Positions 36,057-52,660 of a stretch of 64,000 nt of DNA are shown here, one piece after another. Under the pieces are notes generated by a model. It was not told the origin of the DNA, made no database searches, and was given only the letters and a program-made list of their open reading frames with translations. The stretch covers positions 45,818,001 to 45,882,000 of the forward strand of contig OZ320319.1 of assembly GCA_976226885.1 (NCBI GenBank), written 5' to 3'. Origin of the DNA: Iphione sp. A-MEVVRFRX5. Its lineage: Eukaryota. The translations under genes were made by a program, and so were the position numbers. The first letter of the stretch is position 1, and each line of letters begins with the position of its first letter.

Positions 36057-36171
36057 TGTTGCATTCTCTTAAATGATGCTAGAGTTACTTAAGAGAAGAG
36101 TGATTGAGTTGAGCAGCTTTATTCCATCTTGGATATAGGGCAGAGAGAGAGTACACACAGAGTGATGACAT

Positions 36172-36303
36172 CATCAGATCATCAGCCACACATATCACAC
36201 CCTCTAAATCCTGGATGCAGCTGTGTAGCTTCCTGGCAAAGATCTCTGATGATACGCTTGTCCCGAAAGGCAATCTCAACCATCGGTATCGGCCATGTGG
36301 GGT
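36172..36303 (-). repeat. 132-bp copy of the internal RT segment 33840-33971 replacing the outer end of the 5' LTR
   Basis: One mismatch seen (36264 C vs 33932 T); 10-bp junction microhomology CATCAGATCA. Confidence 0.92.
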
Positions 36304-37470
36304 AGCACAGTGAGTTGGCATAACTAGAGGTCTTTGGTTTAGTTACGACCCCTCTCATATCCCGTCCATGGCACATCCTAGTCGCCTGATCCAGTGGGAT
36401 AAGACCCAATTTGATCTGTTTGTGGATGGCGCAGATAGCCTACCCTTCATCAGCACCAAGTTAGCCACCCTTGCCACGCCAAACTGTCTTTCCAGTCTCA
36501 CAGATGAGTGAAATTCCTTTCCTTGGAGGCATACCGAGCACACCTACTTAGGTGTACCTGTAGGTCCACTACTGCTGCACATGGTAGGGCACTCCAGAGG
36601 GCAGCATTGTATTGAGATACCACCAAGGACTTGAAGAGCAGCAGTCTAGCCCTGAAGGGCAGGAAGCTCTTTGTTCTGCCTACCTTCAGGGCCAAGCCCC
36701 ATGTCTGTCTCTTCACCTCCGGCAACTTTCGCGCATCTTAAGTCTTCCGTCCAGCTTATACCCCAACAGTGAAGTGGTGGCCTCATACTTCAATTGCACC
36801 CCATTAAGAGTCCGGTCAAGTGCTATCCCATGTGCCCTGCCTTGGGTACTATAGGCACACTTGGCCTCACTGAGGACCAAGTTTTCATTCTTACACCACT
36901 TGGATACGGCAGTCAGAGTCAGCATCGCCGTTTGTCACAACCGTAGCAAGTCACGAGCAAAGACCACTACAGACAAGTCGTCTGCATAGATAACCGCTCT
37001 GGTGTCAGCTGGTAGCACGTCCACTACTGTGTTAATGGCTAGATTGAATGCCACAGGGCCGAAAATTGACCCCACTGGCACCCCTTGTTGCAGTATCAGT
37101 TGGGTGGACGACACTCCATTGCAGCAGATGAACTGCCTCCGTTTGCTCAGGTATGACCATATCATCCTTCTAATGCGTGGACCGGCCCCCATGTCCATCA
37201 GTCTCCGGAGGACAGTGGCATGCGCGACCAAGTCAAACGCCTTCTTTACGTCGAATGTTTGGAGGCATGTATTCAGTCCCTTGTTGATAAGATCTTGCAC
37301 CGGTTGGTGAGGCTGACGATGGCTGTCTCCGTCCCTCGGCCTGCTCAGAAACCATGCTGACTGCTAGTTATGGCGCCTTGACCCTCCAGCCTCCGCAATA
37401 GTTCCTTTGTGAACCATCGTTACAAATCTTCCCCGGAATGGGTAGGATTGATACAGGTCGGAATTGTGAA
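36302..37470 (-). mobile_element. CR1/L2-group LINE RT remnant
   Basis: FDVKKAFDLVAH, QGVPVGSIFGP, IYADD; frameshifted; related to the LINE at 50700-52660. Confidence 0.85.
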
Positions 37471-37499: not shown

Positions 37500-38150
37500 T
37501 AGTCATGAAGTGAACTGTTCTCAGTCTCTCATGGAGTAGCTGGCAGTGATGATGGACATGGTCCTATTGGGAATGTGAAGCTGATCTACTCTTACTTCCA
37601 CGTATCATGCCTACAGTGGAACATCCTAATTACGGACACCCTTGGTTCTGCTTCAAATTGTACGCATTTCAGAAGTGCCCTTATTACAGAACTAAGGGTT
37701 ATGTATGGAAATAGAGTAGGTTCTTGTCCAAATCATCTGCATTGTAGAAGCCTCCGCATCTGAGACGTGTCCATGAGGGGACATCACACTGTGTGTGTAT
37801 AGACCCAACAGGGAAGTCGTGGAAGATGAGACAATGATTTAGCACAAGGGCAGGGTGAGATTTAAACAGTATATGCCAGTTAAGGTGACCAAGTGGGGAC
37901 TGAAATGTTGGGGGTTAGCTGATAGCAAAAATGGCTCTCTGTTGCATTTAATACTCTTTTTTGGCAGGGAAGACCATGCTGAGGTGAACATCATTGAAAA
38001 TGTTATCCTGAAGTTGCTAAGGGGAGCTGACGTCTTTAAAAATACTGTACATCTGTATATGGACAATTGTTTCAGCTCTGTTCCTCTTTTTGATAAATTG
38101 AGAGACTTTGGTGTATTTCGCTGTGGCACTGTAAGGCCTATAGTAGGCCT
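37500..38150 (+). mobile_element. piggyBac (PGBD-like) transposase remnant
   Basis: EDETMI*HKGRVRFKQYMPVKVTKWGLKCW...LYMDNCFSSVPLF...CGTVR. Confidence 0.85.
37614..37791. mobile_element. Short Tc1/pogo-type MITE inside the piggyBac remnant
   Basis: TA-CAGTGGAAC...CACACTG ends; internal GGACAC/GTGTCC motifs. Confidence 0.55.
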
Positions 38151-38169
38151 AAGGACACCCTTCTACAAT

Positions 38170-38580
38170 GTAGGGATCACCAATCAAGAGGGAGAAAGAG
38201 GGAAAGAGTCAGAGGGAGGGAGGAATAGAGAAGGAGGGAGAGTGAGAAGGAGGAAGGGAGCGAGGCAGGGAGGGAGGAGAGAGAGACAGGAAGAGAGGGA
38301 GAGCAAGGGAGAGAGTGANNNNNNNNNNNNNNNNNNNNNNNNNNNNNNNNNNNNNNNNNNNNNNNNNNNNNNNNNNNNNNNNNNNNNNNNNNNNNNNNNN
38401 NNNNNNNNNNNNNNNNNNNNNNNNNNNNNNNNNNNNNNNNNNNNNNNNNNNNNNNNNNNNNNNNNNNNNNNNNNNNNNNNNNNNAGGAGAGAGTGAGAGG
38501 GAGAGAAATATGGAGAGAGAGAGAGGGAGAGAGGGCAGGAGGAAGGGAGAGGGATGGGAGCGAGGGAGAGGAGAGAGAGA
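38170..38580. repeat. GA-rich low-complexity tract containing an assembly gap (38319-38484)
   Basis: Direct inspection. Confidence 0.9.
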
Positions 38581-39767
38581 GTGCTTGGCTGCGGGCGAAC
38601 CTCAGGCCCCTTCTCCTACTGCAGAGCACTGACAAACATCCTTGCAACTAGCAGATTCCTGCACTCAGCTGCTGGGGGGGCCTGAGGGCCCCATCCAAGA
38701 TACAAAACCAGGTCCTGCCTTATGTGGTCCTGCTGCAGTCTCCCCCTAGCGTGATAACGAAGAACTATCCAGTTTTCAAGCATACCAGGTTTGGGCATTT
38801 ACTGTCACTATGGCCATAATGTTCTCACAAGGGGTCAGTGGGTAGTTCATTACACTCCACAGTTCAAGGAACCTAGGACATATTCACAGTACTACTACTT
38901 CTCAGATGTTGGCCGGAAAAGAAAAAAGGTTTCATGCTGGGAATTGGGCAGATGCATACATCACACTGATGGATTATATGCCCATCCAGCAGGCACATGA
39001 ATATCATAGAATGCTAGACTAGCATGTGTGAATAGCTGGAATAGCTGGAAGACAAGTGTCTGTGGCAACTATGTAGATAATGTAGTTCTGAGTAACGGGT
39101 CATATTAACGTAGATGACTAACATAGCTCCCTGCATATCACAGCCTAATCTACTAGCATGGGTAGATGTATGGAAGATAGATGTCACTGATTGTAGTGAA
39201 GCTATTGATTACCATCCATCTGAAGGTAGTTTTTGCACAGAATTGACCTTGGGGTACCAGTGAGGTAGTGACAGGTAAAACACAAGCAATGAATGGTACT
39301 GAGTGAACTCTGATTAGGTGTACTAAATTACCCCAACCTGCACTAAGTAAACCGCAAGTCAACATGTGGCAACTCTTAACACTCACCCCGAATGAACTAA
39401 AAGTATCCCCTCTTTTCTGAACAATAGTTAGGAAAAACAGTGGTAATGAATTACAAGGTGCCATAATTTTTGGACCGAGGTCACTGATATAACAGATCAC
39501 AAGGTTACACACTTTAGATGGGAGTGAGTCAGCAACAGGTACAAGGAAATTGAGTAAATAAATCACAAAGTGGCCCGTGATATATTTTGGGCAGAGGTTG
39601 CAGATATAACAGATCACAAGATGACATGTTCATAACAAATCATACCACTTGAACACTATTGGGATGTCGGTTGGGCATGGCACAAGGGCATTGGCTGAGG
39701 CCCTGGTTGTGTTATTGCTGGCATCGCATAGCAGCCTGGATCATAGGGTGTGAGCTGGCCTTTATAT

Positions 39768-39978
39768 TGTTGTGCGGAGCAGTAATATACTCCACACTGA
39801 GTTACTCAGCACGCTCAGCATGTAAGTTACTCCTCAAGTTAGCTCCGCACGTTATGACTGTATGTATAAAAGCAAGTGCGTGCGGAGCTTACTTCAGTTG
39901 CGTTCTTACCTCTCAGCAATAAACATCTAAACCTTACTTGGGAGTCTGCCTCCAGTATGTTAAGGTCTGGCCGTAACA
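39768..39978 (+). mobile_element. Solo LTR (211 bp) with ATAT TSD
   Basis: TGTT...AACA; ATAT at 39764-67 and 39979-82; TATAAAA at 39865, TCAGTT Inr at 39894-99, AATAAA downstream. Confidence 0.88.
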
Positions 39979-39982
39979 ATAT

Positions 39983-40314
39983 CTTGAATCAACTGTTCTG
40001 CCATCTTCACTGTCATGTTGTCATCGTAGTAGTAGTAGTTGCTGCTGTTGTTGTTGTTGTTGTTGTTCTGTTGCTACCATGTTGGTCCCCTGCTGTGATG
40101 TTGGGTGGGTAGGCTTTGTGGTTGAGGGACTGGTCTTGTGTGGTGGTTGGTCAGCAGGTTGGGGTGCTATCCTGGTTGCAGAAGCGGACCTCCTCTTCTG
40201 GGCCTGCAATGAGAACAGCAACTGGTAAGGTAACTCTCCCAGTATCTTTAGGGTGTGCCATTCTGTCAGGACATGCAAGCACCCAGTTCTTGACCCTCTT
40301 GACTGTCAAGATAT
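39983..40314 (-). mobile_element. Old host repeat, possibly a Tx1/L1-type ORF1 remnant, continuing at 49198-49620
   Basis: Removing the Gypsy rejoins AYLTPDDDILTVKRVK...TGRVTLPVAVLIAGPEEEVRFCNQDSTPTC; family assignment weak. Confidence 0.35.
40026..40067. repeat. Compound (GTA)(GCT)(GTT) microsatellite
   Basis: Direct inspection. Confidence 0.9.
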
Positions 40315-40501
40315 TGTTGCGGGCTCCGCTCACCGGAGCCCGCTGTTGGCGGAAATTGTGAAATTGGGGCTCCGCCCGGAGTAGCATTCTGTATATAAGT
40401 CGGGCCGGGCGGAGCTTCGTTGTCATTTGTGTCCTACCCTTAAAGTAATAAACTTCATCAACTGTTATCTGGAAGTCATGTCTCTTCGATCGGGGCGAAC
40501 A
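40315..40501 (+). repeat. 5' LTR (187 bp)
   Basis: TGTT...AACA; TATATAA at 40392, TCATTT Inr-like at 40423-28, AATAAA at 40447-52. Confidence 0.97.
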
Positions 40502-41740
40502 ATTGGTGGCAGCGGTGGGATCCCTGCCCTAGGGGCTGAGGCAGAGGAAGAGGCGGAAGTGGTCAAGCTCCGGGCGGAGTCGGCGGAGCCTGCGGAGCCC
40601 GCCGAGTCAGCGGAGGTCGCCGAGGAGCTGCCGGAGCCCGCCTGGCTCCGCCCGGAACCCGCCACTGACTGGGACGCACAGTCTATGGAGGGGGATCAGC
40701 CTCTGGGTAGCGGGGATGCCCAAACCAGAGATGAGGTGGGGCATGGGGCTGACGAGGAAGAGAGAGAACACGGGGCCCCCACCTCATCCGCCCCACACAG
40801 ATCTAACGAGGACACTGATGACCACCCTCCTCCGGAGGAAGACGAAGGAGAGGGGGAGCCGACCGACCAGGCAGCCGAGCCGCTCTGGACTAGCTTTGTC
40901 CGGGAGCTGAGTTCCGCCCTCCGGCCGGAAGGAGGAAATAAGAGGAGTCTGGTGAAACCTGACACTTACGATGGGAGTACGCCCTTGCGGGACTTTCTAC
41001 AACATTTTGAGCTGGTGGCCCTGGCAAACCGTTGGGGGGCCGGGGAGAAAGCCATCCAGTTGGGCATCACTCTGCGGAAGTCGGCACGGGCGGTCCTACG
41101 GAGTTCGGGGATCGATGTGGAGAAGCCCCGAGCTTACCAGGAACTGGTGGCCGCCCTCACGGAGAGGTTCCAATCCAAGCATCAGACAGACGCATACATC
41201 CAGCAACTGAAGGGGCGTCGGCAGGGGAAGGCCGAGGCCCTAGCGGATCTTGCAGACGAAATTGAGCAATTGGTACAGCTGGCCTACCCTGAGGCGAAAG
41301 GGGCCTGGAAGGACCGGATGTGCCGCGAATACTATGTCGGGGCCCTCAGCAACGAGAAGGTTCGGAAGTGGGTGACCCAGGCCCGAGTGGCAACCTTTCG
41401 TGAGGTGTTGTCAGCATCGCAAGTAGCGGAGTCTTATTATCAGCATAAGTCCGAAAGGGTGGGACCCAAGCGCGTGCATAAGCTGGAAGTGGCCACCGAA
41501 GAGGCTTCGACCAACAAGTCCACCCCCAAGACCGAGGCTACAGCGGCAGGCTTCGAACGGCTGGAGCTCCTGCTTCAACAGTTATTGGCAAGCCAACAAG
41601 GGGCGGAGAAAGAGAATCGCCGGCCGAACAACAAGAAATGCTTCAACTGCGGGGAGCTCGGGCATTTCAAGCGCAACTGTCCCCAGCCCTTGAAGGAGCA
41701 ACCGTCGGGAAACGGGGCAGCGGCCGCCCCTCGCCAGTAG
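40478..41740 (+). CDS. gag: Gag (about 420 aa, one CCHC knuckle)
   Basis: KPDTYDG capsid-like region and CFNCGELGHFKRNC; first AUG after the predicted TSS is 40478 (alternative start 40685). Confidence 0.9.
   Translation: MSLRSGRTIGGSGGIPALGAEAEEEAEVVKLRAESAEPAEPAESAEVAEELPEPAWLRPEPATDWDAQSMEGDQPLGSGDAQTRDEVGHGADEEEREHGAPTSSAPHRSNEDTDDHPPPEEDEGEGEPTDQAAEPLWTSFVRELSSALRPEGGNKRSLVKPDTYDGSTPLRDFLQHFELVALANRWGAGEKAIQLGITLRKSARAVLRSSGIDVEKPRAYQELVAALTERFQSKHQTDAYIQQLKGRRQGKAEALADLADEIEQLVQLAYPEAKGAWKDRMCREYYVGALSNEKVRKWVTQARVATFREVLSASQVAESYYQHKSERVGPKRVHKLEVATEEASTNKSTPKTEATAAGFERLELLLQQLLASQQGAEKENRRPNNKKCFNCGELGHFKRNCPQPLKEQPSGNGAAAAPRQ
40504..40521 (+). promoter_or_regulatory. PBS, tRNA-Leu
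   Basis: TGGTGGCAGCGGTGGGAT is complementary to the tRNA-Leu 3' end (...AUCCCACCGCUGCCA-CCA). Confidence 0.92.
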
Positions 41741-44700
41741 AGAGGGCGGCCAGCCTCCAACCCCATTTGGAAGAACATCTCAGGATGATTCGGCTGTCTT
41801 GTGAGCGGGAGGTCACTCTGGAAGGGGAGAGCGGCCCCGCAACAAACATCACGCTACCTAGTACAATCGACGGTCGGATAGTCCCCTGGTTAGTGGATAC
41901 CGGGGCGTCACTGACCCTGCTGTCGGAGGAAGTCGCCGACACCCTGTCGCTCGGGGAGTTGGAGCCGACAGTGGGGCGGATTTTGTGTGCAGACGGGAAA
42001 CCCCTACGAGTGAAGGGAAGGACGAGGTTGAAGGCGAGTTTTCAAGGGATCGAGTTGGAAGTCAAAGCCTGGGTTGCCCAAATCGACTGCCCCGCCATCT
42101 TGGGGCTGGATACGCTTCGCAAATGGAAAGCACAGGTGGACACGGAGGGGGCCGCGCTGCGGGTGCGGGTCCCCGAGGACAACGGCGCGAGTGGATGCCG
42201 GGCAGAGTTGGCGGAAGATTGCCACCTGGACGGGAGGAGCGCGGTGCAGGCCCCCTTGCGATGGACGGGGCTAGAGACCGACACTGGACCCGTGGTGGTG
42301 GAAGCCTCCCCCGAGTGGGAGGGTCGCTCGGGGATGCTACTGGCACGGACGGTGTGCCAGGCGGGAAGTCAGTCCGGAGTGGCAGAAATAACCAACCCTG
42401 GCCCCGTGGGGCGTCGACTGAGAAAAGGAACCGTTGTCGGCAGGGTCCAGCGGGTGGACGGGCCAGTGCGGGTCGTCCCGGAGAGCGAAGGGGTGGCGGA
42501 CGAAGACGTGGAGCTAGGACCAGCGCTCAGGACCCTGCTGGAGCGCCTGCCACCCATGACTACCGATGAGCGGCAGGGGGTCGAACAGATGCTGCGGCGT
42601 AACGCGCGCTGTTTCCAAGAGGACGGGCAACCGCTTGGGCACACTGACACGGTCCAGCACCGGATCGACGTACAAGGACACGCCCCCATCCGGCAGAGGG
42701 TACGCCGCCTCCCCCCCGCGAAGAAAGCACTAGTACAGCAGGAGGTGAATCGGATGCTGCAGCAAGGAGTGCTAGAGGCCTCTACCAGCCCGTGGGCGTC
42801 GCCCGTGGTTCTGGTCCGGAAGAAGGACCAATCTTGGCGATTTTGCATTGACTACCGCGCCCTTAACCGAGTAACGAAGAAGGATGCCTACCCCCTTCCG
42901 CGGATCGATGAGACACTGGACGCGTTGGAGGGGGCACGTTTCTTCTCGGCGATTGACCTGGCCAGTGGCTATTGGCAGGTAGGAGTGAGACCGGAGGGCC
43001 GAGAGAAGACGGCTGTCTGTACTCCAGGTGGGCTTTACCAGTTCCGGGTCATGCCCTTCGGACTGTGCAATGCGCCCTCCACCTTCGAGCGGTTGATGGA
43101 GGCCGTGCTCCGGGGCCTGGTTGGGCAGTCCTGCCTGGTCTACCTGGACGATGTGATCGTGATAGGGAGGACGGTAGAAGAGATGACCCGCAGGCTCGAT
43201 GACGTCTTCAGCCGCCTGGGGGAGGCCGGGCTTAAAGTAAAACCGCAGAAGTGTCAGCTGTTCCAGGGGGAGGTGGCCTATCTGGGGCACCGCGTGTCGG
43301 AGGAGGGGGTCCAGCCCGACCCTGAGAAGATCCGGGCCATTCAGGAGTGGCCTCCCCCGCGCTGTATCACGGAGTTGAGGAGCTTCATCGGACTGTGCTC
43401 CTACTACAGGAGCTTCGTGGAGGGGTTCGCCATGCTGGCGGCCCCCCTGCACGGACTCTTGGAGAAAGGACAGGAGTATCGCTGGGACGCCGAATGTCAG
43501 CAGGCGTTTGAACAGTTGAAGGAACGGTTGGTGACCGCCCCCGTCTTGGCGTACCCGCGGCCAGAGGGACAGCTAGTGCTGGACACCGATGCATCGGCGG
43601 CTGGGATCGGAGCCGTACTGTCGCAGGAGCAGCAAGGACGGGAACGGGTGTTGGCCTACGCCAGTCGAAGTCTTGCGCGCCCGGAGAAGAACTACTGCGT
43701 CACCCGGAAAGAACTGTTGGCGGTGGTCTTCGGTCTGCGTAAGTTTCGCTCTTATGTTGGAGGGCGAAAGGTGGTAATCCGGACGGACCATAGTTCCTTA
43801 CGTTGGCTATGCAGCTTCAAGGAACCCGAGGGACAGTTGGCCCACTGGCTCGAAGAGGTCCACTGTTATGACTTGGAGGTGATACACCGCCCGGGAAGGA
43901 AACACGGGAACGCTGATGGCCTCTCGCGAGTCAAGTGCCCCCAGTGCGGACGGGACCCGGAAGAGGATCTGCCGACCCTGGGGCAAGTTGCTACGGTGTC
44001 AGTGGCCCCGGCCGCATTGGACTCCTTAGCCCAAGCCCAGAAGGCTGAGCCCGAAGTGGCGGCCCTCATTCGAGCCTGGGAGGCGGAGGAGCCTCTCCCT
44101 GGACTGACTGGTAGTGATTCCCCGGAGGGGAGGTGGCTGAAGAGTGAGTCGCGGCGGTTGAGGATGAAGGACGATCTGCTTTGTCGGCGTTGGGAGGCGG
44201 AGGACGGAACGCTGTACTATCAGGCTTACGTGCCCCAGCCATTGAGATACGACATCTGGCGTGAAGTCCACGCAGGAGCGTTGGGAGGGCATCTCGGCGC
44301 TGAGAAGACAGAAGGTGCCCTTCGCCGGAAATATTGTTGGCCAGGACTCCGACGTGATGTGGGGCGTTGGGTGAAGGCTTGCCGGGAGTGCCAGGAACGA
44401 CAAGATCCAGCTCGCCGACACCGGGCTCCCCTGCAGCTTCGGGTGGCCCCGGCCCCGTGGGAGTTCGTGGCCGTGGACGTGTGCGGCCCCTTCCCCGAGA
44501 CAGAGCGAGGAAACAAGTACATCATTGTGGTGGCGGATCACTTTACGAAGTGGACGGAGGCATTCCCCACTCCGGAAGTCACGGCGGCGAAGACGGCAGA
44601 CGTCCTACTCCGAGAGATCATCTGTCGGTACGGCCCCCCCCGTATTCTTCATTCCAACCAGGGGCGGAACTTCGAGGCGGCGGTAATGCGGGAACTTCTA

Positions 44701-47700
44701 CAGCTGTTGGGCATTCAGCGGTCGCGCACCACCCCATACCATCCCCAGAGTGATGGAGTCGTCGAAAGGTTCAACCGCACTCTCCTAGGAATGTTGGCCA
44801 AGGTAGTCCGAGAAGATCAATCCGACTGGGACCTCCGAGTGCCCTTCGTCCTGGCGGCCTACCGGGCTACCCCGCACTGTACCACCGGGTTCTCTCCGAA
44901 TTGGTTAACCCTACAACGCGAGACTACGCTTCCGGTGGAGTTGATGGTGGGCAGCCCCCGAGACGAGCCCCGATCGGCTTCCGACTATGCCAAGCAGATC
45001 AGGGAGCGCTACATTCAAGGCCACCAGCTAGCCCGGCGTCACCTACAGAAGTCGGCCGAGCGTCAGAAGGATTTGTACGATCAGCGAGTTCGAGAGCAAG
45101 AATTCGACGTTGGCGATCAAGTTTGGGTCTACTCACCAATAAAGAAGAAGGGGCGGTCCCCCAAATTGCAAAGTCGCTGGTTAGGACCGTGGACGGTTCA
45201 AGCCAGGCTCAGTGCTGTCATCTACCGCATCTCTCGAAACCAGAAGACTCGGGTTGTCCACGCCGATCTGCTAAAGAAAGCGGTCTCTCCTAGTTCGGAG
45301 GAAGAAGAAAGACTCGGGCGAGTGTGTGTCGTCACCCTGATGCCGGACGCGGATGCGGCCCCGGAGGGGGCGGGCCCACCTGCTGTGCCCCCGCCCCGTT
45401 GGTACCGCTGTCGACCGAAGACAACGGGCCAGCCGCCGGTGGTTCCCCACAAGAGCACCAGGGACAGCAGGATGCCCCCGCCTCAGCAACGCCCTCCAAT
45501 ACGACGGATCCCCCAAGGCTGGGTGGACTTGGTGGCCCGGGAACTCCGTCTCCTGAGCGACCGGACTTGCCAGGTCCTGCTCCAGTCGCGGGAAGTCGCG
45601 GGACGAAAGACAGGAGAGAAGCCAGGCCCCCGCCCGGGGGCCTACCGCCGGGCATGGCAGAGACTGCGAGGAATCAGGAGGCGATTGCGGAGACAGTATG
45701 GAGGACGCGCGGTACAGCACCTGGTAGAGACCCTCTGGAGGAAGATCGGAGAGAGAAGACATCCCGCTTGGGGTCGACGACAGTTGAAGACGTCGAGCGG
45801 AACTCGCCCGGGGCCCGAGGCGGAGCACGCCCTAACGGGGCGGAGCCCGCCCAGAGCCCGAGCTCCGGGCGGAGATTATACCGCACTCCGCCGCCATCCA
45901 GCCAATCAGAAACAGACGCGGGAAAGTTCGACCAATCAGCGACTGGCGGAGCTAGCCCTGCAGGGATATAAGCTGGCGGCCTTAGAGGGGGCGATTCATT
46001 CCGTCCATCGCCGTGCTCCGCCCACCCAGAGATACTTCCCGAATATTCCCCGCCCGGAATTGAGTACGTCAGCGGAGGTTTCCGCAGAATTCGACCGGAG
46101 TCCGACTAAGTCGCTGCCGGAGCTCGCCGACCAGCGGAGCTCGCCACCTGAAGTCAGCGGAGCTCGCTCGGCGGAGGTCGCCCTACCGGAGCCCGAGAAG
46201 ACCATGACGTCCGGGGGAAGAGCCCAGTATTGCCAGTACTGTGGCTACATCTCTGACAAGCCGGGCAATTTTGATAGACACATGCTAACCCATGGGAAGC
46301 AAGGGTTTGTCCGCCGCTGTCCGGTGCCCCGTTGCCAGGGGGCACACTTCGGCCGCCGGGATGACTTCCGGCGGCACCTGGAGAACAAGCACAAGCAGGA
46401 CGCCGACAACCCCCTCGTGCTGGGCCAGGATGTAGACTTGGAGTTCATCGACCTGGCCAGCGGCCAGAACGTGTCTGTCCCTGAGAGTCGCCGAGAGGAG
46501 TACCAGCGGCAGTTGAAGGTGGAGGCGTATGAACGGGAGAAGGAAGCAGCCATGATTCGGGGGGAGGCCCCCCCACCGCGACCCAAGCTAGCCCGGAAGC
46601 CCCCCCGGGGAAGGAAGGCGTCGGCTGCCGCAGGGCGCCCTCCCCCTCCCCCCCGGGACGACGACCCAGAGGTGGACGAGGACGTGGAGGAAGAGACGGG
46701 AGTTACGGAGGGGCCCCGCCTGCGCCCCCGAGCCGGGCGCGGGGGACAGGTCTCCTCCACCGTGGCCACACCAGGGGCAGGCCGCCCACCAGTCACTCCG
46801 GGTTCCTCGGCCTCAGTAGACATTCCGCTGTTCGGGCTCGACGTGTCACCGGAGGCTCCAGAAGGACGGATCGGCCGCAAGGTCCGCAAGGCTGCGGGGA
46901 AAGCGGCCAGCCGAGGTACCTCAGCAGGGGAGACGGCCGCCGTTCCTACACCAGCGAAGCCGGCCGCGCAGGGGTCCACTTCTGCCGTCTCCACGCCGGG
47001 GGCCGCTCGGGTGCGCGGCCTTCCTCCCACCAGATCCCGACCCGCCGAGTCATCAGGGGAGTGGCCGACCCCCTCCACCCCTGGGAAGGACTTGGACTTC
47101 CAGGCCATGCGGGACGAGGCCGATCGAAGGAAGAGGAGGTACCAGCCGCAGACGTCTCCTGTCACCCCGGCCAGTCTCCCCTCACCCGCGAAGAAGGTCG
47201 CCAACATCACGTCCTCCACGATGTCGCCACTACATCGGGCGGTGATTGCCGCGGGGATTCGAGACCGCACCCCCCAGTCCACCCCCGCCTCCGCTAGTTC
47301 GTCCTACAGCGAAGCGGCACGGGAGCTGGACGCGTGGCTAGGCGAGGAGTGGGAGAACGTGGAGAGGGAGGAGCGGCCCACGGACGTGGTGGTGATTGGG
47401 TCGGATCCAGAGTCCGAGGACGAAACCCAGGTGGAAGACGCTACCGCCGCCTCTGAGCCGCTGGCCGAGCAGCTCAGCGCGAGCCCGGGGACCCCCTGTG
47501 GGCGCATCCACTATGCCCGGCTGGATGTGGCAGGGGGGGCCCCGGCAGATGATGCAGCAGCTGAGGACGTTCCCTTGTCTGAGGGGGAGGCCGCCCTCAC
47601 CCTGGCGGAGCTTGCAGAGGAAGAGCTCCGCCCGGAGCTCCCGGCGATAGAGACTGAACCTGGCGGAGCTCGCCCCGAGCCGGCGGAGCCCGCCCCTGCC

Positions 47701-48723
47701 CCGCCGCCGGAGACCACCACTCAGCCCTCGGAGCCTGGCCGGGCTCCGCCGATGGGGCCCCAACCCGAGGCGCCCGGGCAGCCGCTGACGCCAGCGGAGC
47801 CCGACGCTGGAACTGAGCCTACCCCCCCGGTACTCCCGGGACGGCGCATGGAAGCAGGGGCAGGGGAGACCCTGCCCAAGGAGATCCCCCCGGCACCCCC
47901 GGGACGGCGAGGGGAGGAGCCGGCACCTGTCCAGCCGGACCCTCCCGTGGAGATCCCCCCGGAGCTTCCGGGACGGCGCGCAGCAGACAGGCCAGACGCT
48001 CTGGCCCCTACCGAGGAACTCCCCCCGGGGCCCCCGGGACGGCGAATTGAGGCGGAGCCCGATGCTGGGGCTCCCCCTCAGGATGTCCCCCCGGCACTCC
48101 CGGGATGGCGGATGGATGAAGGGCCCGGGGACGAGGCCCCGGGCCCGGCCCTCCCCCCGGCACTCCCGGGACGGCGACTGCCGGCGACTGGAGGCGGGAC
48201 TGGCGCACCGGCTCAACCCTTGGCTACCAGTACTCCCGTGGGGGACCCCCCCGGAGCGGCCCAACCGCGGATAGGGCCGGCCCTGGCGGGCCCCGACCGT
48301 CGGGCTGAAGTGCGGCCCGGAGCCCGCAGACAGCTCCTGTTGGACCCTGCCACCGTGCCGGTGGCGGTGACCCGTTGGGCGCATGCCCGAGTGGTCACCC
48401 CCAGGACCTCACCCCCTGCCGGGTGGCGTATTGTTACGGCGGAGGGGACTGCCACCGTGACCCCTCAAAGGGACCATATTCGTGCTAGGTTCCGGCAGGG
48501 GGTGCAGTTGCTATTACGGACAGCCGACCCTGTGGATGCGGAGGAGCCGGGGCACTGGCTGCAGGACAGAGGGATTGCCGATCCCAGCCTGGACATCTCT
48601 CAGGTCTCCTCCGAACTGTCCTCTCGCCTATTGGAGCCCGAACGAGTGGAGTTGTCGTTGGAGGAAGAGTTCCAGGTGGTGGCCAGGCCAGTACAGGCCC
48701 CGGCCGCAGCTGCAGAGCGCTGA
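41638..48723 (+). CDS. pol: Pol (PR-RT-RH-IN) with a ~1150-aa C-terminal extension; -1 frame relative to gag
   Basis: LVDTGAS, YLDD, DTDAS, integrase HHCC and D-S(D>N)QG-E region, SH3-like tail ending near 45280; the frame stays open to 48723. Confidence 0.95.
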   Translation: MLQLRGARAFQAQLSPALEGATVGKRGSGRPSPVERAASLQPHLEEHLRMIRLSCEREVTLEGESGPATNITLPSTIDGRIVPWLVDTGASLTLLSEEVADTLSLGELEPTVGRILCADGKPLRVKGRTRLKASFQGIELEVKAWVAQIDCPAILGLDTLRKWKAQVDTEGAALRVRVPEDNGASGCRAELAEDCHLDGRSAVQAPLRWTGLETDTGPVVVEASPEWEGRSGMLLARTVCQAGSQSGVAEITNPGPVGRRLRKGTVVGRVQRVDGPVRVVPESEGVADEDVELGPALRTLLERLPPMTTDERQGVEQMLRRNARCFQEDGQPLGHTDTVQHRIDVQGHAPIRQRVRRLPPAKKALVQQEVNRMLQQGVLEASTSPWASPVVLVRKKDQSWRFCIDYRALNRVTKKDAYPLPRIDETLDALEGARFFSAIDLASGYWQVGVRPEGREKTAVCTPGGLYQFRVMPFGLCNAPSTFERLMEAVLRGLVGQSCLVYLDDVIVIGRTVEEMTRRLDDVFSRLGEAGLKVKPQKCQLFQGEVAYLGHRVSEEGVQPDPEKIRAIQEWPPPRCITELRSFIGLCSYYRSFVEGFAMLAAPLHGLLEKGQEYRWDAECQQAFEQLKERLVTAPVLAYPRPEGQLVLDTDASAAGIGAVLSQEQQGRERVLAYASRSLARPEKNYCVTRKELLAVVFGLRKFRSYVGGRKVVIRTDHSSLRWLCSFKEPEGQLAHWLEEVHCYDLEVIHRPGRKHGNADGLSRVKCPQCGRDPEEDLPTLGQVATVSVAPAALDSLAQAQKAEPEVAALIRAWEAEEPLPGLTGSDSPEGRWLKSESRRLRMKDDLLCRRWEAEDGTLYYQAYVPQPLRYDIWREVHAGALGGHLGAEKTEGALRRKYCWPGLRRDVGRWVKACRECQERQDPARRHRAPLQLRVAPAPWEFVAVDVCGPFPETERGNKYIIVVADHFTKWTEAFPTPEVTAAKTADVLLREIICRYGPPRILHSNQGRNFEAAVMRELLQLLGIQRSRTTPYHPQSDGVVERFNRTLLGMLAKVVREDQSDWDLRVPFVLAAYRATPHCTTGFSPNWLTLQRETTLPVELMVGSPRDEPRSASDYAKQIRERYIQGHQLARRHLQKSAERQKDLYDQRVREQEFDVGDQVWVYSPIKKKGRSPKLQSRWLGPWTVQARLSAVIYRISRNQKTRVVHADLLKKAVSPSSEEEERLGRVCVVTLMPDADAAPEGAGPPAVPPPRWYRCRPKTTGQPPVVPHKSTRDSRMPPPQQRPPIRRIPQGWVDLVARELRLLSDRTCQVLLQSREVAGRKTGEKPGPRPGAYRRAWQRLRGIRRRLRRQYGGRAVQHLVETLWRKIGERRHPAWGRRQLKTSSGTRPGPEAEHALTGRSPPRARAPGGDYTALRRHPANQKQTRESSTNQRLAELALQGYKLAALEGAIHSVHRRAPPTQRYFPNIPRPELSTSAEVSAEFDRSPTKSLPELADQRSSPPEVSGARSAEVALPEPEKTMTSGGRAQYCQYCGYISDKPGNFDRHMLTHGKQGFVRRCPVPRCQGAHFGRRDDFRRHLENKHKQDADNPLVLGQDVDLEFIDLASGQNVSVPESRREEYQRQLKVEAYEREKEAAMIRGEAPPPRPKLARKPPRGRKASAAAGRPPPPPRDDDPEVDEDVEEETGVTEGPRLRPRAGRGGQVSSTVATPGAGRPPVTPGSSASVDIPLFGLDVSPEAPEGRIGRKVRKAAGKAASRGTSAGETAAVPTPAKPAAQGSTSAVSTPGAARVRGLPPTRSRPAESSGEWPTPSTPGKDLDFQAMRDEADRRKRRYQPQTSPVTPASLPSPAKKVANITSSTMSPLHRAVIAAGIRDRTPQSTPASASSSYSEAARELDAWLGEEWENVEREERPTDVVVIGSDPESEDETQVEDATAASEPLAEQLSASPGTPCGRIHYARLDVAGGAPADDAAAEDVPLSEGEAALTLAELAEEELRPELPAIETEPGGARPEPAEPAPAPPPETTTQPSEPGRAPPMGPQPEAPGQPLTPAEPDAGTEPTPPVLPGRRMEAGAGETLPKEIPPAPPGRRGEEPAPVQPDPPVEIPPELPGRRAADRPDALAPTEELPPGPPGRRIEAEPDAGAPPQDVPPALPGWRMDEGPGDEAPGPALPPALPGRRLPATGGGTGAPAQPLATSTPVGDPPGAAQPRIGPALAGPDRRAEVRPGARRQLLLDPATVPVAVTRWAHARVVTPRTSPPAGWRIVTAEGTATVTPQRDHIRARFRQGVQLLLRTADPVDAEEPGHWLQDRGIADPSLDISQVSSELSSRLLEPERVELSLEEEFQVVARPVQAPAAAAER
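41707..41751 (+). promoter_or_regulatory. -1 ribosomal frameshift signal
   Basis: G GGA AAC in the gag frame, 8-nt spacer, stem GGCCGCCC / GGGCGGCC. Confidence 0.8.
45902..46001 (+). promoter_or_regulatory. Predicted internal Pol II core promoter inside pol
   Basis: CCAATCAG at 45902 and 45932, TATAAG at 45967, TCATTC Inr with +1 A at 45998 (31 bp from TATA). Confidence 0.7.
46204..48723 (+). CDS. Putative stand-alone 839-aa C2H2 zinc-finger accessory protein (same frame as pol)
   Basis: First ATG after the predicted internal TSS (accATG); C-x2-C-x12-H-x3-H at 46231-46293 and C-x4-C-x13-H-x4-H at 46318-46392. Confidence 0.72.
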   Translation: MTSGGRAQYCQYCGYISDKPGNFDRHMLTHGKQGFVRRCPVPRCQGAHFGRRDDFRRHLENKHKQDADNPLVLGQDVDLEFIDLASGQNVSVPESRREEYQRQLKVEAYEREKEAAMIRGEAPPPRPKLARKPPRGRKASAAAGRPPPPPRDDDPEVDEDVEEETGVTEGPRLRPRAGRGGQVSSTVATPGAGRPPVTPGSSASVDIPLFGLDVSPEAPEGRIGRKVRKAAGKAASRGTSAGETAAVPTPAKPAAQGSTSAVSTPGAARVRGLPPTRSRPAESSGEWPTPSTPGKDLDFQAMRDEADRRKRRYQPQTSPVTPASLPSPAKKVANITSSTMSPLHRAVIAAGIRDRTPQSTPASASSSYSEAARELDAWLGEEWENVEREERPTDVVVIGSDPESEDETQVEDATAASEPLAEQLSASPGTPCGRIHYARLDVAGGAPADDAAAEDVPLSEGEAALTLAELAEEELRPELPAIETEPGGARPEPAEPAPAPPPETTTQPSEPGRAPPMGPQPEAPGQPLTPAEPDAGTEPTPPVLPGRRMEAGAGETLPKEIPPAPPGRRGEEPAPVQPDPPVEIPPELPGRRAADRPDALAPTEELPPGPPGRRIEAEPDAGAPPQDVPPALPGWRMDEGPGDEAPGPALPPALPGRRLPATGGGTGAPAQPLATSTPVGDPPGAAQPRIGPALAGPDRRAEVRPGARRQLLLDPATVPVAVTRWAHARVVTPRTSPPAGWRIVTAEGTATVTPQRDHIRARFRQGVQLLLRTADPVDAEEPGHWLQDRGIADPSLDISQVSSELSSRLLEPERVELSLEEEFQVVARPVQAPAAAAER

Positions 48724-48740
48724 GTTGTTTACCGTTATGT

Positions 48741-48945
48741 TGGTCAGTACAGACCTCTTTACTCAAAGTAAGGTTTTTCCAGTAATAAGAAGATGGTTCA
48801 CGGATTTGTTGGCTGGTCAGTACAGACCTCTTTGCTCAAGTAAGGTTTTTCCAGTAATAAGAAGATGGTTCACGAATTTGTTGGTTGGTCAGTACAGACC
48901 TTTTTGCCCAAGTAGGGTTCAGCAGTAAGAAGATAGTCGATGGAT
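48741..48945 (+). repeat. 72-73 bp tandem repeat x3 in the element's 3' UTR
   Basis: TGGTCAGTACAGACCT at 48741, 48814 and 48886. Confidence 0.9.
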
Positions 48946-49006
48946 TTATTTAAGATTTATTCAAGTAGTAGTGGCTCAGGGACTGAGCCCTCTTGGGCGG
49001 GGGTAA

Positions 49007-49193
49007 TGTTGCGGGCTCCGCTCACCGGAGCCCGCTGTTGGCGGAAATTGTGAAATTGGGGCTCCGCCCGGAGTAGCATTCTGTATATAAGTCGGGCCGG
49101 GCGGAGCTTCGTTGTCATTTGTGTCCTACCCTTAAAGTAATAAACTTCATCAACTGTTATCTGGAAGTCATGTCTCTTCGATCGGGGCGAACA
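49007..49193 (+). repeat. 3' LTR (187 bp)
   Basis: Identical to 40315-40501 by eye; preceded by GGGCGGGGG PPT. Confidence 0.97.
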
Positions 49194-49739
49194 ATATCAT
49201 CATCTGGTGTCAGGTAGGCCCGTTCTTTACATAGTAGAGAGGTCAGTACGGCCTCTCGGTGAGCCCCATTAGCTGAGAGGTGATGGTTCTTTATACACCA
49301 TACCCAGGTTTCTATGTTGCATAGCAAACTGGTGCAACAGAGGCAGTGGCATCACGGATGTGTAGGGTGAGAGGCCTGCCCTTCCCAAAAGAGCAGCATC
49401 CCTCACACCATCACTGAGACATTGGTTCTTTGCCAATGTCTTGAGTGGTTTCCCAGATTGTCTCAGTTGGCAGTGCAAGGATATCCCACACTGGTCGATA
49501 GCCTCATGGGTGCTACATTGGATTCTGTCTTCTTGTATCCCATGGTTATCTGCTTTGTGATGTTCCTGGGCTGGCTTCCACATGGTTCTGGGGCCGTTTC
49601 CTGAATGCAAAAATTTAATCATGGGTATTAGGGTACCGTAATTAAGTTAAGAACATTCTTAATATTTAATCTGCATTCTTAGATTGTAGGATGTAGTTTT
49701 GTGTCCTGAATGGGGCCCTGAGATTCCCTAAACCCTTTT

Positions 49740-50600
49740 ATGACCCTTACAGGGCTGCCTGATGCTGTCATGGTTCCTGTGTCCATGATGTGGCTGACCA
49801 TGGCTGGCATGGGGCTGCCTATGGCTGACATGGAGCCATCTGTGGTCATTATGGTGTCATCTATGACCACCACAGGACTGTCTTTTGCTGTCATGGTTCC
49901 TGTATCCATAACAGGGCTGGCCATGGCTGGCATGGGGCTGGCCATGGCTGGTATGGGACTGGCCATGGCTGGTACAGGGCCATCTGTGGTCATTATGTTG
50001 CTGTCTGTGACTGTTACCCAGTCACAGACAGCATCATGATGGCCACAGATGGCCCTCTACCAACCATGGCCAGCTCCATGCTAGCCATGGCCAGCCATAT
50101 CACAGATGCAGGGACCATGACAGCAACACACCCTATGACATTCACAGGCAGCACCATGATAGCCAAAGATAGGCCAATGCCAGGCATAGGTAGCCCATGT
50201 TAGCCATGGTCAGGCCATGCCAGCCATGGCCAGCCCAATTATGGACACTGAGACCAAGACAACAAAAGGCAGCCCTGTGACAGTCACAGACAGCACCATG
50301 ATTGCCACAGATGGCCCTATGTCAGCCATTGCCAGTCCTATGCCAGCCAAGGCCAGCCCCATACTAGGAATGGCCAGCCCCATCATGATCACAAGGACCA
50401 TGGCAGCAACAGACAACCCTGTCATGTTCATAGATGGCACCATGATGGCTACAGATGGCCCTGTGCCAGTCATAGGCAGTCCATGGCAGCCATGGCCAGT
50501 CCCATGCCAGCTATGGCCAGCCCCATACCAGCCATGGCCAGCCCCATCATGATCACAGGGACCATGACAGCAACAGACAGTTCTATGATGGTCATAGATG
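49740..50600. repeat. Fold-back minisatellite (21-bp subunits in ~130-150 bp units; orientation flips at 50016)
   Basis: GGCTGGCCATGG units on the left, CCATGGCCAGCC on the right; perfect 15-bp stem 49999-50013/50019-50033. Confidence 0.85.
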
Positions 50601-50699
50601 ACACTACTCTTAATCTTACCCTTCTAGTGAGATTAAATAATGCATGGTTAACTGCTATGCAGGAACACATTTGGGGTGATTAAACAGTGGTACCATGAT

Positions 50700-52660
50700 T
50701 AAAAGTTAATTGTTAATGGTCAGCATAAGAAGACCCCGTGATGGTCCTGTACTGGACCGTGGCTGCGTGGAACTTCTCAAAGACCGCGCCTACTTCTTTG
50801 AGAAATGGCGGAAGGAAGGTTGCATAGACAGCTGGCGAATCTTTAGATTCCTGAACTGCAAAGTGGCAGCTGCCATGAGAAGGAACCAGAAATTTTTCTG
50901 GGAAAACAAGCTAGCTCAAGTGAGAGGTGACACAGCCAAAACATGGTCCGTGCTAAATGAAGCCACAGGCAGAGCGACCACCACCGACAGCCTCCCTGAC
51001 ACAGTTGCGTCGGAAAGGGAGCATGGCGTTTCTCTAGCAACAGCATTTAACAACTATTTTGTCAATGATGTCAATGCGCTAGTGCCAAATCATGCCAATG
51101 GCCCATCCTTTCCAACAAATAAAGCTGGTGTGGGCTTTGAGATAACGCCGCCTTGACCCATTGATGTACGGAACTTGGTCCAAAAAATCAATGTTCACAA
51201 GTCATCTGGGTTGGAAGGCATCCCAACAAAAATCTTGAAGCCGTTCTTCCTACTATGCCCTGAATTCTTGGCCTGGATCTATGCGAGATTTCTCTCAACC
51301 GGCATTTATCCTCAGAGCTGGAAACTAGCCCCTGTGACCCCGGTCCACAAACGGGGTGCAGTAGACGTTCTAGGTAACTACCGGCCGGTTTCAATCTTGC
51401 CCTTGCCGGGCAAGATCTGTGAACACTGGTTCACTGAGAGAATCAGCACCTATGTGGAATGGACAGGATTCCTTGCAGGATGCCAACACGGCTTCAGACA
51501 GGGACGGGGGACGGAGACGGCAATTACATCCCTATTGGGTGAGATTGCCACGCAGATCAATGCCAAAAGCTACATTTGTCTCCTTATGTGTGACTTAAAG
51601 AAGGCGTTCAATCTTGTCCCACATGACTCCATCCTCACACGCCTCAGACAGGCAGGGTTTGGACAGCGAACTATTCAGCTAATTGCCGGGTATCTTGCAG
51701 ACAGGGTCCAGTTTGTGCGTTGTGGGGGCAAGGACTCGGGAGTGCTACCCCTCAAACAAGGAGTCCCCCAGGGGTCCATTTTTGGACCCACAGCATTCAA
51801 TCTGGTGATCAACTCAATCACTGGGGTAATTGGCAATGCATGTCGACCAATACTTTATGCTGACAACCTCACAGTTGTCATAACTGCCAAGGACCTGCTT
51901 CGGTTAAGATGGCGCTCAAATGAGGTCCTACGTTGCATCCAGAGCTGGTGCCTCGATGAAGGCCTGCTGCTGAGTATCCCAAAATGTTCGTATTGCACTG
52001 TGGGGCGCGTGGCCAAGGTCCCACTTGATCTTGAGCTGAACGGCGAGGAGCTAAACCGCCCTGTGAACCCCAAGCTACTCGGATACATCATTGACGGCTG
52101 CCTAAAAATGAGAGTCAGGCTAAAGTAGGTTGTGTCCAAGAGCTGGGCCATGGCCATCCGACTTTCACGACTCAAGAATGTGCTGCCTCTGTCCACGTGC
52201 GAACTGTTGTTCAAAAGTCTGATAATGTCTCTTTTTCACTTTCATGCAGTCACCTGGTTTGGGCTATCTTCTTCTGACTAGATCAGACTCCAGGTGCACT
52301 TGAACCGATGCATAAGACTGAGCCTCCAGATGAACCCTCAACAATCAGCAATGACTATCGCGAGGAGACTGGGAATCCCGCGTATCAAAGACCTGGTCTG
52401 CATGCGTGGGCTAATTGCTGTCCACAACCTGGTCAAGCTGGGCCTTGTGCAGCTTGGTGCACCAGGGAAAACACGCTATACTAATGAGACGCGTGGACTC
52501 CTAACACGTCCGAGAACTTCATTGTTTCGAGCGTCACTCCAGTATGAGGGCGTACGTCGCTGGAACACGCTACCGTCTGAACTGAGGGGCTGCCCTCGAC
52601 TCACTATCAAAACACTTACTAGGTTAACTGTGGACGGTGAACCCACATGGGGTTCCTAGT
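50700..52660 (+). mobile_element. 5'-truncated CR1/L2-group LINE, disrupted RT ORF
   Basis: GNYRPVSILP, QHGFRQGR, DLKKAF, GVPQGSIFGP, LYADN, GVRRWNTLP; internal stops. Confidence 0.9.

Follow-up and report, generated by a model that had tools for sequence, protein, structure and literature searches.

A promoter-like block within the pol frame of a Ty3/gypsy retrotransposon of Iphione sp. and its candidate self-encoded zinc-finger regulator

For their transcription, LTR retrotransposons are generally considered to rely on factors supplied by the host. The window analysed here, a stretch of 64,000 nucleotides from Iphione sp. A-MEVVRFRX5 (GCA_976226885.1, contig OZ320319.1, positions 45,818,001 to 45,882,000), raises the question of whether such an element can carry, inside its own pol coding sequence, a promoter for a transcription factor of its own making. 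All positions given below are those of the window, and oriented features are located on its forward strand. The locus is occupied by a complete Ty3/gypsy element (family A, 40315..49193) which is intact and young: its LTRs are 99% identical to each other, and TG...CA LTR termini, an ATAT target-site duplication, a primer-binding site and a purine tract are all present. The Pfam scan returned the gypsy domain order, with gag followed by pol (PR-RT-RNaseH-IN), and no match to an env family among the ORFs scanned. The 5' LTR (40315..40501) has its counterpart in the 3' LTR (49007..49193), ahead of which lies the purine tract (48995). The 5' LTR contains TATATAAG at 40392, TATAAG at 40394, TCATTT with its A at 40425, 31 nt past TATAAG, AATAAA at 40447 and five SCGGAG sites, among them the palindrome CTCCG-CC-CGGAG at 40370; neither RRCCAAT nor GCGGGAA occurs in it. 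The primer-binding site (40504..40521), conserved in family A and its sister family B, is tRNA-Leu-like and is presumably that of tRNA-Leu. The gag ORF (40478..41740), identified from the ORF list and Pfam, begins with an ATG located within the LTR, encodes a CCHC knuckle and holds seven SCGGAG sites in its first 70 codons, at 40568-40651. The pol ORF (41482..48723), 2413 codons from stop to stop, encodes PR, RT, RH and IN; past these come a linker, a pair of C2H2 fingers and an acidic and proline-rich tail.

Three related families in the same genome were used for comparison. Among 150 scored matches of the finger domain in the genome, about 90 belong to family A (79-100% identical) and most of the others to sister family B (57-60% identical). 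The best long homologues are at most 55% identical. The distant, non-autonomous family S was traced from a solo LTR flanked by an ATAT duplication (39768..39978), located 340 bp upstream of the family A element. Family S is devoid of RT, RNase H and integrase and retains the fingers (46% identical); its LTR gave 976 first-look candidates in the genome.

The motif coordinates of the original prediction, which described a canonical internal promoter hidden in the pol frame, were all borne out when the sequence was checked again. The word CCAATCAG is found at 45902 and 45932, 30 nt apart, TATAAG at 45967 and TCATTC at 45996. The A of the latter falls on 45998, at a distance of 31 nt from the T of the TATA box. 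The distal CCAAT box AGCCAATCAG (45900..45909), which we take to be of the NF-Y type, gives way to a GTGCGGAG site in family S. The proximal one, GACCAATCAG (45930..45939), lies 35 nt ahead of the TATA box (TATAAG, 45967..45972), which the pol frame translates as Tyr-Lys, and the GCGGAG situated between the two (45946..45951) occupies the same place in families A, B and S. An inverted pair CTCCG-GG-CGGAG with a spacer of 2 (45863..45874) is a predicted two-half-site binding element. Transcription from the predicted initiator (45996..46001, +1 at 45998) would produce a 206-nt leader (45998..46203) containing eight SCGGAG sites at 46016-46191. The first ATG past the TATA box is found at 46204 (accATGa), in the pol frame and nine codons before Cys10 of finger 1, and would open a predicted stand-alone finger protein of 839 aa (46204..48723). 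The lack of any ATG in this leader is real but of little weight taken alone, as 19% of the positions of this ORF are at least 206 nt away from the next ATG. The region between the CCAAT boxes also contains a word overlooked in the original prediction, GCGGGAAA (45918..45925), whose GCGGGAA portion is kept in A, B and S and which we liken to an E2F site.

The spacing of this core (30 nt between the CCAAT boxes, 35 nt from CCAAT to TATA) recurs in 17 of 20 relatives selected for the similarity of their finger protein, the three misses being a single-CCAAT copy, a truncation and a deletion; twenty further loci, picked by the pattern itself, were left out of this count. The internal promoter thereby passes the comparative check that accompanied the original prediction. 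Of 30 family A copies, 29 have the twin-CCAAT-TATA core, and the pattern matches the genome 551 times, in copies of related and therefore non-independent elements, versus 0 for the reversed control. The exact TCATTC initiator did not hold up in relatives, as family B displays TTC[G]TAC or TTC[G]CAC: only a pyrimidine/purine step is conserved, found about 31 nt past the TATA box in all 17 protein-picked relatives that possess the core and in 3/3 S copies. Between family A and B3 (L053), fourfold sites are saturated in the PR, RT, RH and IN domains (identity 0.26-0.36), versus 14 identical out of 17 in 45860-46030, and third codon positions in the core are as conserved (0.70) as first and second ones (0.66 and 0.62). 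Synonymous codons are kept in 16/19 cases in 45860-45972 versus 598/1369 elsewhere (Fisher p=6e-4), the limits of this interval having been set after the motifs were seen; as a point against, a second synonymous-conserved stretch at 47800-48180 is as strong as the promoter core. In family S, the order GCGGGAA-CCAAT-GCGGAG-TATA is retained with 42 of 57 nt as in A, versus 4-14 of 28 nt in flanking bins, and the peptide past the TATA box is unrelated to that of A. As in a pol II promoter, CCAAT and TATA words keep a fixed spacing and orientation, with a conservation that exceeds what coding requires, and with high confidence the block is judged from its sequence to be a real internal promoter.

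The same region appears to serve a second purpose. The peptides encoded at 45640-45790 and 45973-46020 show synonymous change; as this includes the codons past the TATA box, selection on the protein acts on the linker too, as part of the fused frame. This pol-finger frame is open in A, B (2608 codons in L053) and S (1350 codons in L099). Coding selection on the post-TATA peptide and on the upstream linker domain, together with this open frame, indicates a dual-coding region, so the promoter is very likely overprinted on the pol frame.

The in-frame Met located before finger 1 is likewise kept in families A, B and S. It is the first ATG past the TATA box in all 14 B copies with the core, and no conserved splice acceptor was found near it in the 5 copies checked. 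On the opposite side, an out-of-frame upstream ATG is present in 3/3 S copies, and in L099 its frame ends at the finger ATG. The promoter-like block likely drives a short mRNA for the two-finger protein. One locus starting at the finger ATG (L048) was considered as a retrocopy of such an mRNA and rejected as a truncated copy, since it ends in a full LTR.

The block is embedded in a cluster of short words. The nine GCGGAG/CTCCGC sites reported between 45820 and 46206 are all real, but the count was incomplete, a tenth site at 46016 having been missed. The estimate of about 0.5 sites expected at ~68% GC was somewhat low, with a mean of 0.80 in dinucleotide shuffles and a regional GC content of ~60-67%, but the excess itself holds: none of 5000 shuffles reached 10. 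No hexamer of any kind occurred more than 9 times in these shuffles, so that the count survives the post-hoc choice of the motif. The argument that sites falling in differing reading frames denote a DNA-level motif is weaker than proposed, as 5 of the 9 lie in frame 0, where they correspond to Ala-Glu codons or to the minus-strand counterpart of these. A different comparison of codon usage can be made: Ala/Pro-Glu pairs are written with SCG-GAG codons in 21/26 cases in the promoter region versus 7/45 in the enzyme domains of three copies, a test that is weak in the window copy alone (6/11 versus 6/22).

In its fuller form the motif reads (R)SCGGAGY; SCGGAG is found 14 times in 45750-46210. Five related copies, which share ancestry, contain 83 CGGAG sites in their internal region, of which 78 are preceded by G/C and 75 followed by C/T. 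CCGGAG accounts for about half of the A/B sites (38/78). Apart from the clusters in the LTR and at the 5' end of gag, a third cluster of eight sites, with a palindrome at 47626, is found within the tail coding region (47605..47799). When CTCCG and CGGAG are paired, a spacer of 2 is the commonest (30 pairs in 8 related, non-independent copies), and the inverted pair CTCCG-NN-CGGAG, a frequent arrangement of the word, stands directly upstream of the LTR TATA box in 6/8 copies examined. Every SCGGAG site contains a CpG; decay of sites to GTGGAG or GCAGAG is seen in old copies, and CpG-type changes make up 32 of the 117 differences that separate 29 family A copies, in an unpolarised count where shared variants are counted repeatedly. 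Family S has its own motif variant, GTGCGGAG, common to its LTR and its internal promoter. The corresponding TG-CGGAG flank is displayed in one S copy by 12/16 sites of the LTR and gag 5' end and by 9/13 internal sites, versus 1/29 and 0/33, respectively, in one A and one B3 copy taken together. A family-specific motif, the predicted target, has accumulated in its own element, with a flank common to the LTR and to the internal promoter, although this sharing could stem from copying between the two.

The protein predicted to read this motif carries two C2H2 fingers. Finger 1 (46231..46293) has the helix residues K-1 N3 R6, with H-1 in B and R-1 in S; N3 and R6 are invariant in A, B and S, and the predicted triplet is GAG. 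Finger 2 (46318..46392) has the helix RRDDFRR (R-1 D2 D3 R6), which does not vary between A, B3 and S and has GCG as predicted triplet. Under the Zif268-type code, finger 2 plus finger 1 would read 5'-GCG GAG-3', and R-1 in finger 1 of family S would presumably make it a canonical GAG finger. The invariant residues thus predict a GCG-GAG target; the CCGGAG sites are not predicted by R6 of finger 2. Near-identical finger helices are carried by B, S and the decayed families L071-L090, among which no family with a changed finger code occurs. The ligands C-x2,4-C...H-x3,4-H are invariant, and the linker between the fingers, GKQGFVRR (8 residues), is not of the TGEKP type. The AlphaFold model displays two strand-strand-helix units (mean pLDDT 67) and a conserved charged helix at residues 94-118 (46483..46557, pLDDT 72-77), the conservation being apparent from the alignment. 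Pfam C2H2 matches are below the curated cut-off and limited to finger 1, and a fold search with the finger model returned weak C2H2 matches only (best E 0.22). The tail is rich in acidic residues (31 D/E in residues 361-480) and in proline (36 P in 481-600). No close homologue of the finger protein was obtained outside this genome at E<=0.001 and none in viral contigs; 41 matches from a further search look like generic multi-finger proteins, and the Atlas matches are generic C2H2 clusters.

These elements can be assembled into a model. The LTRs have a TATA box, an initiator-like word and the SCGGAG motif, as seen in the four LTRs checked, all of which lack both RRCCAAT and GCGGGAA, whereas the internal block has both of the latter; a logic of the foamy-virus type is therefore the simplest model. 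NF-Y at the twin CCAAT boxes, a factor at the E2F-like site and TBP at the TATA box would ensure basal transcription from about 45998, the transcript ending at the poly(A) signal of the 3' LTR. Scanning to the ATG at 46204 would yield the 839-aa protein, whose finger 2 (R-1 D3 R6) would read GCG and finger 1 (N3 R6) GAG, often at inverted pairs. The acidic and proline-rich tail would activate the LTR and then feed back on the internal promoter; the protein may also keep the CpG of each site unmethylated, and the same frame would additionally be translated as a Pol fusion. Judged on sequence evidence, binding of the finger protein to the SCGGAG words of its own promoters is quite probable, activation rather than repression or pure anti-silencing is moderately so, and self-regulation by feedback is likely; that this feedback would reach the LTR too was absent from the original prediction. 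The interpretation given there, a subgenomic mRNA for the finger protein with feedback on its own promoter as in foamy virus, is supported in part, on comparative grounds. The explanation as a whole, an overprinted pol promoter combined with a self-encoded SCGGAG-binding regulator, is the best we can offer and is held with moderate confidence.

Other readings of the same data were weighed. The promoter could be real and its SCGGAG words could serve a host factor, acting as Sp/KLF GC boxes or as targets of some other finger protein of the host; the fingers of the element would then be used for instance to tether integration or to bind RNA. A CCAAT box, a GC box and a TATA box do make a textbook promoter, and 3 of the 14 internal A sites are GGGCGGAG, which we take to be an Sp1-type box. 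However, the other 11 internal A sites and 16/16 S LTR/gag sites are not GGGCGGAG, a family-specific flank common to both promoters is not what a general factor such as Sp1 would predict, and the invariant finger residues point independently to GCG-GAG under the Zif268-type code. Sp1 by itself was rejected as insufficient on the first two of these grounds, and the wider host-factor reading is considered unlikely. It is slightly less probable still that the finger protein binds these words and represses or limits the element, by negative feedback or copy-number control, or that its action is a purely VANC-like anti-silencing. Such roles would suit the position of eight sites downstream of the predicted start and of seven in the first 70 gag codons, as well as the CpG content and the decay of the sites described above; against them, an LTR deprived of CCAAT and E2F-like words would need an activator, and the tail has the acidic and proline-rich composition already mentioned.

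A third possibility dispenses with the internal transcript: the fingers would be delivered only by a protease-cut Gag-Pol fusion or by a spliced LTR transcript, the block being an enhancer or a by-product of coding. As the fusion frame is open and the flanking peptides show synonymous change, the Pol fusion alone could deliver the fingers, and this frame, conserved in three families with linker peptides under coding selection, is joined by two metagenomic loci (L106 and L107) whose separate finger ORF has an AG just before its ATG. The fixed spacing and orientation of CCAAT and TATA, the conserved downstream Met, the conservation of core third positions, the lack of a conserved acceptor near the ATG and the retention of the core in S with a different peptide all argue the other way, and we regard this possibility as quite improbable. 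Finally, the sites might have clustered by chance in a GC-rich, low-complexity coding sequence rich in Pro, Ala and Glu, as would be suggested by the many sites in frame 0 read as Ala-Glu or Pro-Glu codons and by the cluster in the tail. This is largely refuted already by the shuffle test, the presence of sites in the non-coding U3 of the LTR and the conservation across saturated families, and can be given hardly any credence.

The preferred reading, that of an overprinted promoter and a self-encoded regulator, can be set against other, distant gypsy elements. One or more C2H2-type fingers directly past the integrase were found in 6 of 12 proteins inspected among 120 long pol homologues (P0144, P0153, P0154, P0156, P0158 and P0159, known as protein sequences only), and a finger ORF past the integrase was found at 2 of 4 metagenome loci, L106 and L107. 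A Met shortly precedes the first finger in 5 of these 6 proteins and at both loci, and the second helix of P0156, RPSDMRRH, resembles family A finger 2. In L106 and L107, pol is closed by a stop codon and the finger ORF stands apart, an acceptor-like AG immediately preceding its ATG, and no CCAAT-TATA block is present ahead of this ORF in either of them. Such relatives appear to make the finger ORF by splicing. It may be that the finger gene is common among these elements and in many cases spliced, the overprinted promoter being the solution of this particular lineage. A more ambitious proposition, about evenly balanced in our estimation, is that a gypsy lineage independently evolved a circuit of the complex-retrovirus kind, in which a host-driven promoter overprinted on pol yields a C2H2 factor that turns on its own LTR by way of a family-specific word, that family S dropped RT and integrase yet kept this circuit for its value, and that the finger gene is a widespread, overlooked third gene of this gypsy group.

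If the model is true, a C2H2 regulator that the element itself encodes, and whose six-base target can be read, would be a simple case, open to direct test, of an animal retrotransposon regulating itself, in convergence with foamy viruses and VANC. Its binding sites would be spread over the host genome in LTRs numbering in the hundreds, given the pattern matches and S LTR candidates counted above, and C2H2 proteins, commonly seen as silencers by which the host controls transposons, would appear in the opposite role.

A full-text literature search, covering titles and the beginnings of abstracts, with most subscription journals and Repbase outside its scope, returned no description of this arrangement. 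In the text consulted, PMC6338049 contains no mention of zinc fingers and PMC10547256 none of gypsy. Three known systems come closest in the parts of the literature consulted. In foamy virus, an internal promoter located in env has basal activity and makes Tas/Bel1, which binds both the LTR and the internal promoter (PMC7390438). The family A element is similar in its two predicted promoters, the internal one within a coding gene, and the host-type CCAAT and E2F-like words are found here only in the internal promoter and not in the LTR. It differs in being a gypsy element without env, with the block in the pol frame and a C2H2 pair in frame with Pol as candidate regulator; in addition, both promoters share one repeated word here, and the circuit is a prediction from sequence. 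It is not a spumaretrovirus genome with an env-borne promoter.

In Oikopleura, the Tor3b/4b elements produce a capped, unspliced internal transcript (Penv) starting in or after pol, for env (PMC4402516). Both they and family A are of the Ty3/gypsy type and share the position, predicted in family A, of a promoter within pol for a downstream gene; the downstream gene of Tor is however a separate env ORF, no self-encoded regulator is described in the text consulted, and its main text contains no match to zinc finger (0 matches; PMC4402516). VANC, from the VANDAL elements of Arabidopsis, is a DNA-binding protein whose short target motifs amass within the family that encodes it and vary from one related family to another (PMC5735166). 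Family A has, in the same manner, family-specific predicted target motifs accumulated in its own element, whereas VANDALs are DNA transposons and VANC acts by demethylation (PMC5735166), the candidate regulator here being a C2H2 pair with motifs at two promoters and partly in coding sequence. The finger protein gave no match to the VANC family. The family A element would work like a foamy virus, has the promoter position of Tor and follows the motif logic of VANC, while being a member of none of these groups.

The gag ATG of the family A Ty3/gypsy element is located at window 40478, within the LTR, and the PBS is part of the translated gag sequence, reading MSLRSGRTIGGSGG in both family A and B3 of the sister family B. 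In the tail coding region, a third cluster of SCGGAG, the word predicted to be the target of the element's fingers, is found with a palindrome at 47605-47799, and the family B copies display a cluster at a similar position. Six repeats of 63-69 nt each (PPxLPGRR) occupy 47800-48180, where synonymous conservation between families A and B equals in strength that of the core of the predicted internal promoter in the pol frame. This repeat stretch is possibly a DNA or RNA element.

A solo LTR of the distant family S is present nearby (39768-39978). The same ATAT target-site duplication adjoins the family A element (40311-40314) and this solo LTR (39764-39767), which suggests a target preference common to both. 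Family S is a 6.3-kb non-autonomous element (full copies L097-L099) displaying the order gag-PR-linker-fingers-tail without RT, RH and IN. A count by eye over the 150 listed copies gives more than 40 in which its 1350-codon frame is still open. An out-of-frame upstream ATG precedes the finger ORF, within its leader, in 3/3 copies; in L099 the corresponding frame closes at a TGA overlapping the start codon of the finger ORF, which may represent a stop-restart arrangement.

Elsewhere in the window, a Met/Ala-rich unit (ATGGCCAGCCC...) occurs in tandem and inverted repeats at 49680-50620, with inverted arms of at most 206 nt. Other segments resemble fragments of non-LTR reverse transcriptase ORFs (50710-52660 and 36935-37363), of a gypsy-like RT (near 36085-36440) and of a transposase (37843-38200).

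Traces of the twin CCAAT and TATA remain in old, CpG-decayed families (L071-L090), this promoter part being subject to ascertainment bias since the loci were retrieved by promoter-region DNA; traces of a finger domain, approximately 30-45% identical, likewise remain downstream. A finger ORF directly follows the integrase in distant gypsy elements as well: in 2 of 4 metagenome loci (L106:3150-3300 and L107:6640-6800), both with an acceptor-like AG preceding the finger ATG, and in 6 of the 12 proteins inspected among 120 long pol homologues (P0144, P0153, P0154, P0156, P0158 and P0159).
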